From the IMG/VR virus record IMGVR_UViG_2537562231_000018: a stretch of DNA of 24,218 bases; one strand, written 5' to 3'. Origin of the DNA: a virus (lineage: Duplodnaviria > Heunggongvirae > Uroviricota > Caudoviricetes). A model generated the notes under the pieces. That model saw only the letters and a program-made list of their open reading frames with translations. It was not told the DNA's origin and searched no databases. Below, piece after piece: positions 2,577 through 3,063 of the stretch (position 1 is the first letter of the stretch; every line of letters starts with the position of its first letter). A program made the position numbers and the translations under genes.

Positions 2577-2583
2577 ATCCCCC

Positions 2584-2715
2584 TCACCCCACCAGCCATG
2601 ACAAAGTTAAGACGCGCCAGGCAGTGGAAAAGCAAATAGCAACCAGCATTAGTGAAAATGAAATGCCGACGATTACACAGAGGATCTTCGCCAGCGTTAT
2701 GAGCTTGTCTGACAT
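2584..2715 (-). CDS. hypothetical 43-aa hydrophobic peptide
   Basis: [43 protein letters not shown]; GAGGA SD 6 nt upstream of the ATG; stop lies just upstream of the Rz SD. Below the ORF-track size cutoff. Confidence 0.3.
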
Positions 2716-2727
2716 GCTTAATCCTCT

Positions 2728-2874
2728 TCACGATTTCAACGCAATGACCAGTTTTGCCAGCCCATACAGCATCGGAGACACAGCAATACCGACCGCCACC
2801 CACTTAATAGCAAAAGCCAGCGCTCTGCTGACGTCATCAGTTACAGGCGCTTTCAGTTCAAGGCCGTTTTTCAT
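2728..2874 (-). CDS. hypothetical 48-aa membrane peptide
   Basis: MKNGLELKAPVTDDVSRALAFAIKWVAVGIAVSPMLYGLAKLVIALKS; weak SD; followed 10 nt later by the 43-aa ORF. Confidence 0.25.
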   Translation of the reverse strand: MKNGLELKAPVTDDVSRALAFAIKWVAVGIAVSPMLYGLAKLVIALKS

Positions 2875-2943
2875 AGTCAATCTCAACAGAATTCGTTTAT
2901 ACTTTCCATGTTCTCCCTTGCCTTACTCAAGGTCAGAAACACA

Positions 2944-2974
2944 AAACCCCGTTTGCGGCCAACAAACGGGGTTT
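2944..2974. terminator. 12-bp-stem hairpin (AAACCCCGTTTG / CAAACGGGGTTT) between R and the small ORFs, T-rich on both sides
   Basis: Perfect inverted repeat with a 7-nt loop, followed by ACTTTTATT on + and UGUGUUUCU on the minus-strand RNA; candidate intrinsic terminator or attenuator inside the late operon. Confidence 0.4.
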
Positions 2975-3063
2975 ACTTTTATTCACTTAGTTTTTGCCAG
3001 TTCGCAGGATTTCGTGTTATCCGCCAGTGTGAGCAAACCGCATTTTTCAGCAAAATATTCTGC

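Follow-up and report, generated by a model that had tools for sequence, protein, structure and literature searches.

Two conserved genes for predicted small membrane proteins and a terminator-like hairpin between the lysozyme and Rz genes of a lambdoid prophage

The window analysed here is a stretch of 24,218 nucleotides (nt) of tailed-phage DNA (Caudoviricetes; IMG/VR record IMGVR_UViG_2537562231_000018), and the subject is the interval between the stop codon of its lysozyme gene (3064) and the start of its Rz gene (2576), that is, positions 2577-3063. A preliminary description had pointed to an insert of about 490 bp with a hairpin and two small open reading frames (ORFs) at a place where lambda has its endolysin and Rz genes adjacent. 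The hairpin and both frames, called ORF1 and ORF2 below, are indeed present, on the minus strand, but the length is 487 bp; the statement on lambda is correct, R and Rz in fact overlapping there. The interval and its borders are arranged as follows.

3064..3597, minus strand: GH24 lysozyme gene (PF00959, E = 1.5e-24), the upstream border of the interval
2975..3063, minus strand: spacer of 89 nt adjoining the lysozyme gene
2934..2985, both strands: bidirectional intrinsic terminator as judged by its anatomy, made up of a stem-loop (2944-2974), an A-tract and a T-tract
2875..2943, minus strand: ORF1 leader of 69 nt, with the Shine-Dalgarno (SD)-like sequence AAGGGAG (2919-2913) and the putative ancestral start codon (2909-2907)
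2728..2874, minus strand: ORF1, 48 amino acids (aa) in the window, ATG at 2874 and stop at 2728; Sakai ECs_2740; phrog_1115
12 nt between ORF1 and ORF2, minus strand: spacer including AGAGGA
2584..2715, minus strand: ORF2, 43 aa; Sakai ECs_5740; phrog_4906
2172..2576, minus strand: Rz i-spanin gene, beginning 7 nt after the ORF2 stop and frameshifted at about 2277

The two frames have the sizes and the hydrophobic character first described, 48 aa (2874-2728) and 43 aa (2715-2584). Each contains one hydrophobic window of 19 aa, with a Kyte-Doolittle mean of 1.90 in ORF1 and 2.86 in ORF2, and each product is predicted to be a single-pass membrane protein. The region is 99.6% identical to prophages of O157:H7 and is the counterpart of the Sakai prophage Sp14, where the order is ECs_2741 (endolysin), ECs_2740 (60 aa), ECs_5740 (43 aa), ECs_2738/2739 (Rz/Rz1) and pchC. 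The product of the lysozyme gene is named "lysozyme" by PGAP in a near-identical locus (L002) and "phage endolysin" in Sp14 (ECs_2741), and its Gly/Ala-rich N-terminus suggests a signal-anchor-release (SAR)-type endolysin. The insert is widespread and is already called "hypothetical protein" by PGAP. Of 5426 complete E. coli genomes, 1862 gave a match to the interval, and in 990 of these the match extended over 80% or more of the interval. Its G+C content is 0.47 vs 0.54-0.55 in the flanking genes, a slight drop that is not diagnostic.

For comparison, 158 related loci were gathered from IMG/VR, GenBank phages, RefSeq E. coli genomes and assemblies. Among 27 distinct full-length coding sequences of ORF1 (29 for the conserved core), 14, 3 and 30 sites varied at codon positions 1, 2 and 3, respectively, and the ratio of non-synonymous to synonymous polymorphism (pN/pS) was 0.18 in its own frame vs 0.42-17.6 across the other five frames. 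For ORF2 the overall pN/pS was 0.35, and two allele pairs gave synonymous to non-synonymous counts of 11:2 (p = 2e-5) and 18:15 (p = 4e-4). An ORF2-like frame of 43-44 aa was kept in 122 of 126 loci, the C-terminus being frameshifted in eight of those. Conservation as synonymous-biased coding sequence across homologous loci, which the preliminary description had named as a check, was thus found for both ORFs. As far as substitution patterns can tell, these comparisons show ORF1 and ORF2 to be real, conserved protein-coding genes under purifying selection with fixed starts and stops.

The same figures refute the earlier suggestion that the two frames are remnants. Decayed genes, or chance ORFs in a non-coding spacer, might have been expected from the private 1-nt deletions of the window and its frameshifted Rz gene (see below), and from the C-terminal frameshift of ORF2 in 8 of 126 loci. 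However, selection acts on both ORFs in their own frames, their lengths, starts and stops are conserved, and they are present in functional, plaque-forming phages, and we regard this explanation as very improbable. It is barely credible that the real gene is instead a long plus-strand ORF (2624-3121, 165 aa) lying antisense across the whole interval. Antisense frame -1 is stop-free over both ORFs, with a pN/pS of 0.42 over ORF1 and 0.39 over ORF2, and plus-strand stop-to-stop frames measure 133-146 aa in close relatives. Nevertheless, the plus-strand ORF is a known shadow frame, one in which the wobble positions fall on the wobble positions of the sense frame. Counts were better in the sense frame for four of six ORF2 allele pairs (for example, sense vs antisense, 11:2 vs 8:5 and 15.5:13.5 vs 8.5:19.5), equal for pair B-C and better in antisense for pair A-B, and the order of codon-position variability, 3 > 1 > 2, fits the sense frame only. 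Moreover, the plus-strand frame is broken to at most 69 aa in the copies of the GH108 context described below, indels in the ORF1-ORF2 spacer are not multiples of three, the fixed starts and stops and the SD sequences speak for the sense frame, and such an ORF would have to cross the terminator hairpin.

Compared with its relatives, ORF1 is to be read as natively a 60-aa protein (MxKYKRILLRLT followed by the 48 aa), of which the window holds a copy truncated to 48 aa. A start codon, ATG or GTG, stands 12 codons upstream of the 48-aa start in all 16 distinct upstream sequences, and the extension reads M/V-x-KYK(R/L/P)IL(L/F)RLT. The distant copy of Salmonella salamae retains KYKRLFMRLT, its changes being synonymous (CGA->CGG, ACT->ACA) or conservative (I->L, L->F, L->M), and a short paralogue of ORF1 retains RKYKRFFLRLSI plus one additional in-frame codon. 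The extension is included both by PGAP and by the PHROG profiles. In the window one G of a GGG run (about 2905-2906) is deleted, and the native start is therefore out of frame. This deletion at 2905 was seen in none of the full-length matches among 1028 complete-genome E. coli records. It is one of four 1-nt deletions, all in homopolymer runs (1454, 2905, 2971 and 4405), that are private to the window when it is compared with Sakai and all close relatives. By a fifth, the loss of a T at 2277 in comparison with L002 and Sakai, the N-terminal part of Rz is made to run on in the Rz1 frame, and 1-nt insertions vs Sakai Sp14 occur at 4353 and 6436 in nearly identical surroundings. The 1-nt deletions look like sequencing or assembly errors, with real decay as the alternative. 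Both ORFs had been described as preceded by SD sequences. This holds for ORF2, with AGAGGA 6 nt upstream of its start, but the 48-aa start of ORF1 has only a weak one (GAGA in the window, GAGG in most relatives).

In its architecture, ORF1 has a cationic N-terminus (KYKRILLRL), then an acidic linker and one transmembrane helix bearing the invariant motif AFAI(K/R), and it ends in a tail of two residues. Homologues of conserved length came from E. coli, E. marmotae and Salmonella. A profile built from 25 members of the family matched solely "hypothetical" proteins of Escherichia and Salmonella, and ORF1 is present in just 14 phage records. It matches phrog_1115 (E = 3.2e-33) and phrog_4493 (E = 6.3e-24), which are families of unknown function. 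The short paralogues form a family of 28-50 aa proteins with an IRWW ending that can adjoin Rz too; the short paralogue matches phrog_4493 from its own residue 1, KYKR extension included. A 59-aa database protein (P0113) combines a holin N-terminus with an ORF1 C-terminus, joined at the shared WVA(I/V)G, and is probably an assembly or recombination chimera.

ORF2 is tied to Rz by its position. Its stop codon precedes the Rz ATG by 7 nt, and the Rz ribosome-binding site follows right after that stop codon, a spacing that would suit translational coupling of the two genes. Homologues were recovered solely from E. coli, again with conserved length, and ORF2 matches phrog_4906 (E = 7.3e-24), another family whose function is unknown. 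By tblastn, ORF2 was found in 276 phage records, mostly those of phages converting to Shiga toxin (Stx) 1 or 2 production, including BP-4795, Min27 and P13374. Plaque-forming Stx phages are among its carriers, and most of the sampled matches carry no annotation at the matched place. Furthermore, ORF2 stays by Rz where the antirepressor gene ant fills the gap, the order being lysozyme, a different hairpin, ant, ORF2 and Rz in Stx2 phage 86 and in Sakai prophages Sp9 (ECs_5722) and Sp12 (ECs_5732). The interval of the window thus resembles the ant-containing lysozyme-Rz interval of 933W-type Stx phages in its insertion site, in the types of the flanking lysozyme and Rz genes, in the terminator-like hairpin after the lysozyme gene and in ORF2 as the neighbour of Rz. 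It differs in its cargo, which in the 933W type is a 189-aa antirepressor rather than ORF1, and in the sequence of the hairpin. In some E. coli prophages (L147, 2367-2715), the order is ORF2, an N-terminally different ORF1, a short paralogue and Rz. Gene callers frequently fuse ORF2 and ORF1 into products of 71-84 aa (among P0072-P0095).

The ORF1 cassette was found in at least six contexts, including positions behind three unrelated types of endolysin.

Context 1: behind the GH24 lysozyme gene, as in the window
Context 2: behind a GH108/PG_binding_3 endolysin gene, with holin_8 and holin_3_7, and with a 60-aa lipoprotein instead of Rz
Context 3: behind a GH19-type endolysin gene with a lambda-S-type holin (holin_3_1), in Salmonella
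Context 4: behind the antirepressor gene (ant), in Salmonella
Context 5: in the head-tail region, between genes for an Ig-domain protein and a minor-tail or tail-completion protein
Context 6: between tail genes I and J, in S. salamae

ORF1 is always accompanied by the hairpin and the leader, and homology across contexts starts exactly at the A-tract of the hairpin. Read in this comparative way, the interval is composed of two separable elements, a mobile ORF1 cassette (terminator, leader of about 70 nt and ORF1) and the Rz-linked ORF2. As judged from its changing flanks, the distribution of the cassette shows that it moves between unrelated late-operon sites in the manner of cargo. The 89-nt spacer at 2975-3063 is part of the lysozyme module and not of the cargo, being common to loci with other cargo. 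It is shared with phage 86, which carries ant, to just before the hairpin, and with L146 and L147 through the hairpin. Some of the E. coli matches span just query positions 1-153 of the interval. In L157, the S. salamae copy among tail genes, the ORF1 cassette is flanked by near-identical terminator-like hairpins (1343-1360 and 1673-1689; ACCGCC..GGCGGTTTT), and the I-J intergenic terminator may have been duplicated there on cassette insertion. The cassettes of the GH108 type have their 60-aa lipoprotein gene after ORF2 (L112, 2357-2539; L084, about 2467-2650), with the lipobox LLVGC and a match to phrog_7528; no Rz-like gene was found in the examined DNA of these lysis cassettes (L112, L084).

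The hairpin, which had been described with a 12-bp stem, reads AAACCCCGTTTG-TTGGCCG-CAAACGGGGTTT on the minus strand (2974-2944) and forms 12 pairs on the plus strand and 13 on the minus strand, six of them G-C. Pairs were counted by hand from RNAfold output, as MAFFT puts bulged variants out of register. The minimum free energy of the window hairpin is -19 to -20 kcal/mol (z = -2.8), equal folding being reached in 3 of 200 shuffles, and values of -18.5 to -24 kcal/mol were obtained with RNAfold for all 18 variants examined. The outer stem CCCCG/CGGGG is invariant. The inner stem exists in compensatory versions, namely GTTTG/CAAAC, GTTTG/CAAGC (with a G-U pair), GGCTG/CAG(t)CC, and GAACG/CGATC or GATTG/CAGTC, and the A-U pair at the stem base is G-C in L157. 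Within the 10 nt after the stem, 24 variants have on average 7.25 T in the sense direction (minimum 4) and 7.5 T in the antisense direction (minimum 6), and the antisense T-tail is retained in at least nine unrelated flanking sequences. This anatomy and the conserved structure show a bidirectional intrinsic terminator, and we infer that it functions as one in vivo.

Small cargo genes of lambdoid late operons, such as lambda bor, lambda lom and HK97 gp15, are known as morons (Juhala et al. 2000, cited in PMC4104026). The ORF1 cassette is similar to them as extra DNA between genes that are adjacent in relatives (the lambda R and Rz genes overlap) and as a mosaically distributed element occurring in several contexts. 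It is also sharply bounded, at the terminator hairpin, and co-oriented with the late genes, and its predicted product is a small membrane protein like that of HK97 gp15. Unlike a classical moron, which is preceded by a promoter of its own and followed by a terminator, the cassette has its terminator upstream, and no sense-strand promoter was detected; a terminator-like hairpin downstream was seen only in the tail-region copy. HK97 gp15 is said to act in superinfection exclusion at the inner membrane. ORF1, and perhaps ORF2, could likewise be expressed in the lysogen from a weak unrecognised promoter for a task of that kind, which we consider unlikely yet worth weighing. The cargo-like, mosaic spread over lysis, head-tail and tail-tip positions speaks for such a role, as do the fact that the same lysozyme-Rz gap houses the non-lysis gene ant, the terminator-like hairpin that the tail-region copy in L157 has downstream of its own ORF1, and the fact that lambda lyses without ORF1 and ORF2. 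It is opposed by the terminator lying directly upstream of ORF1, by the absence of any sense-strand promoter-like site from the 70-100 nt that precede ORF1 in the window, L002, L112 and L157, four diverged copies, and by the spacing of ORF2 for coupling to Rz, a late lysis gene. In addition, no defence-system model of PADLOC was matched.

The sole promoter-like site in the region has the antisense orientation and overlaps coding sequence.

2874..2903, plus strand: sigma-70 promoter-like site, TAGTCA-18-TATACT, a hypothetical feature

This site gives rise to an explanation in which the mobile unit is a plus-strand small RNA gene plus ORF1, the latter being a toxic peptide under antisense control as in type I toxin-antitoxin (TA) loci; type-I-toxin-like peptides were also among the options of the preliminary description. 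An RNA of about 70-75 nt, running from the promoter-like site to the hairpin (roughly 2910-2985, plus strand), would block translation of leaky transcripts or trigger their cleavage, and ORF1 would be membrane-damaging. We hold this to be rather unlikely, although several observations are in its favour. The predicted antisense RNA is complementary to the SD sequence and ribosome-binding site as well as the start codon of full-length ORF1, and the model accounts for the hairpin that always co-travels 5' of ORF1. The promoter-like site occurs in the same place with a score of 9/12 in the window and L002, 10/12 in L112 (TATAAT) and 10/12 in L157 (TTGTCA). The antisense T-tract never falls below 6 T in 10 nt, whereas the sense T-tract degenerates to 4-5 T in L134, L157 and L108. 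The predicted RNA folds into two hairpins (-23.9 kcal/mol, z = -3.7), and ORF1 with at most 60 aa and ORF2 with 43 aa have the size and the one hydrophobic helix each of small membrane peptides.

On the other hand, promoter-like matches of this quality occur at the rate of chance (2 found vs 2.2 expected in a 2.4-kb scan). The antisense hexamers overlap the conserved codons for KYK and LT-M, and coding constraint alone could preserve them. The short paralogue of L146 no longer has the antisense -35 element, and no site was found in the L134 variant. Covariation is absent from the 5' stem of the predicted RNA. No Rfam family was found in the interval, either in a search of the whole window at the gathering threshold or in one of positions 2400-3200 at E values up to 10, and Esr41, AgvB and AsxR, though in Rfam, gave no match there. 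Cross-linking and analysis of cDNA (CRAC) with Hfq gave no peak between the lysozyme gene and ORF1 in Sakai Sp14, although type I antitoxins frequently do without Hfq. A dedicated toxin promoter is likewise lacking, since the four copies showed no sense-strand site; in L157, the gap between the hairpin and the terminator before it is only about 15 nt. Finally, Pfam and NCBIfam revealed no similarity to Hok, Ldr, TisB, Ibs, ShoB, Zor or DinQ. Taken as a whole, the locus is similar to type I TA loci (hok/sok, ldr/rdl, tisB/istR, zorO/orzO and symE/symR) in encoding a small hydrophobic single-helix peptide on a mobile element and in a short antisense RNA that may cover the ribosome-binding region and end at a terminator of its own, and a bona fide sok (RF01794) is present elsewhere in the window. 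It is dissimilar in showing no sequence or RNA-family similarity, in having no dedicated toxin promoter and a predicted rather than proven antisense RNA, and in the position of ORF1 inside a late operon with closely spaced genes after it.

The explanation that we favour, although we would put it at rather less than an even chance, is one of late expression, in which ORF1 and ORF2 stay silent in the lysogen, are made together with holin, endolysin and spanin upon Q read-through, and then place their products in the inner membrane. The terminator would hold ORF1, ORF2 and Rz silent as long as the prophage is resting, and it would also halt antisense transcription ahead of the lysozyme and holin genes. 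During late transcription, Q-modified RNA polymerase from the late promoter would read through the terminator, leading to expression of both ORFs. As the stretch from the hairpin to ORF1 showed no sense-strand sigma-70-like site in any of the four copies named above, the peptides would be made solely in this way. In every context the cassette points the same way as the late genes, and the gene spacings inside it resemble those of an operon. Having entered the inner membrane, the peptides would be non-essential modulators of the envelope in the lysis phase; since lambda does without them, lysis as such does not require ORF1 or ORF2. The fixed position of ORF2 at the start of Rz suggests a link to the spanin step or to lysis timing, and ORF2 would probably act with or beside Rz. 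The wandering of ORF1 suggests a general membrane effect. The preliminary description had offered "lysis modulators" as one possible role, and this is plausible for ORF2, next to Rz, and weakened for ORF1, which is also found among head and tail genes.

Several points tell against this late-expression explanation. The consensus promoter scan is insensitive and could miss a weak sense-strand promoter. The presence of ORF1 in head and tail regions and behind three endolysin classes argues against a specific partner among the lysis proteins, and the distribution fits generic cargo equally well. A terminator that lies 5' of the gene and travels with it is not predicted by the late-operon model; the antisense-RNA model is better in this respect. 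Neither ORF resembles any holin, antiholin or spanin family in Pfam, NCBIfam or profile comparison, and no mention of the ORF1 or ORF2 sequences, accessions or locus tags was found in the searchable literature, nor anything in the supplements of Hücker 2017 (ribosome profiling, Ribo-seq, of Sakai) and Venturini 2020 (Salmonella small proteins). In particular, Pfam, NCBIfam and PADLOC returned no family for ORF1, ORF2, the 60-aa form or the short paralogue, and Phage_holin in Pfam was matched neither by ORF1 and ORF2 nor by 25 ORF1 relatives. Compared as profiles with the S21-type holin, ORF1 reached a probability of 4.8% and ORF2 one of 0.1%. Spanin features were not seen either, as the periplasmic tails measure no more than about 10 aa in ORF1 and ORF2, both of which also lack a lipobox. 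Phages possess a range of accessory membrane proteins for lysis, for example the antiholins S107, S21-71 and P1 LydB, P2 LysA, the Mu releasin gp25 and the phiKT disruptin gp28. ORF1 and ORF2 are similar to these proteins in being small and membrane-directed or cationic and in being encoded between or beside holin, endolysin and spanin genes, and they would likewise be made late. They differ in having no homology to any of them, and ORF1 in occurring outside lysis cassettes as well.

Three more specific relationships were considered and rejected. The ORF1 helix might mimic the second transmembrane domain of a pinholin (WVAVGIAVS vs WVAIGVLGS; pairwise E = 0.002), an idea that was dropped because most holin alleles read QWAAIG and because of the low hhalign probability (4.8%). 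The match of ORF2 to the membrane anchor of lambda Rz (pairwise E = 0.008 over 17 residues) is too weak for ORF2 to count as a copy of that anchor, and neither of these two short resemblances held up at the profile level. For ORF1 and ORF2 as mutual paralogues the hhalign probability was 1.5%. The Pas, AgvB and EcOnc small RNAs (sRNAs) are placed by the literature upstream of the holin gene or elsewhere, outside the interval.

Shiga toxin exits the cell when the Stx prophage lyses its host, and every gene of the lysis cassette is therefore relevant to the timing and the amount of toxin released. It is decidedly unlikely, in our estimate, that the late operons hold a hitherto unrecognised antisense-controlled membrane-peptide module and that, separately, ORF2 is an Rz-coupled lysis gene of Stx phages affecting the timing of toxin release. 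The behaviour of ORF1 indicates that a small membrane-protein gene can relocate among unrelated late-operon sites with a terminator upstream, a layout that departs from the textbook moron and hints at antisense control. If the two genes have no effect on lysis, exclusion or viability, they are merely two more small hypothetical phage proteins. ORF1 and ORF2 are real, widespread and partly unannotated small phage membrane proteins or morons, and nothing categorically new.

Upstream of the lysozyme gene, the lysis cassette of the window continues with two further genes.

4197-3991, minus strand: S21-type class II holin gene (PF04971)
3986-3648, minus strand: YdfR/DUF1327 gene, between the holin and lysozyme genes

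The YdfR/DUF1327 gene is a further accessory gene of the cassette, and in 17 loci the holin gene is followed directly by the lysozyme gene. At the other end, the single Rz ORF matches both PF03245 (residues 29-104) and PF06085, Rz1 (residues 98-133). A separate Rz1 N-terminus (2356-2264) ends after 30 aa, and the 81 nt round the Rz frameshift reach at most 93.9% identity to any of the 5426 complete E. coli genomes.

The gap between the esterase and holin genes (4198-4498, 300 nt) contains two terminator-like hairpins on the minus strand (4278-4252 and 4340-4323). PasA/PasC and EcOnc51-type sRNAs map to this gap in related prophages, and IS629 is located there in Sakai Sp14; in the gap of the window, 4198-4498, no Rfam family was matched. 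On the far side of the Rz gene, a PerC-family regulator gene (1256-1645, minus strand) is the homologue of Sakai pchC (ECs_2737), and the sequence upstream of it (1650-1850) is very A+T-rich. A YlcI/YnfO-family gene (1026-1250, plus strand) is convergent with it. The corresponding YnfO-family gene of Sakai Sp12 has the Hfq-bound peak EcOnc10 at its 3' end; EcOnc11 (Sp10) and EcOnc12 (Sp9) lie at a similar distance and were not mapped to a YnfO-family gene. Matches at the Rfam gathering level were obtained elsewhere in the window for STnc100 (6487-6659, minus strand), upstream of the SASA esterase gene, for the sok antitoxin of hok/sok (RF01794; 10272-10446, minus strand) and for DicF (20114-20165, plus strand). 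Going by these three RNA-family matches, the window is marked as a lambdoid prophage of the Qin/Sp14 type.

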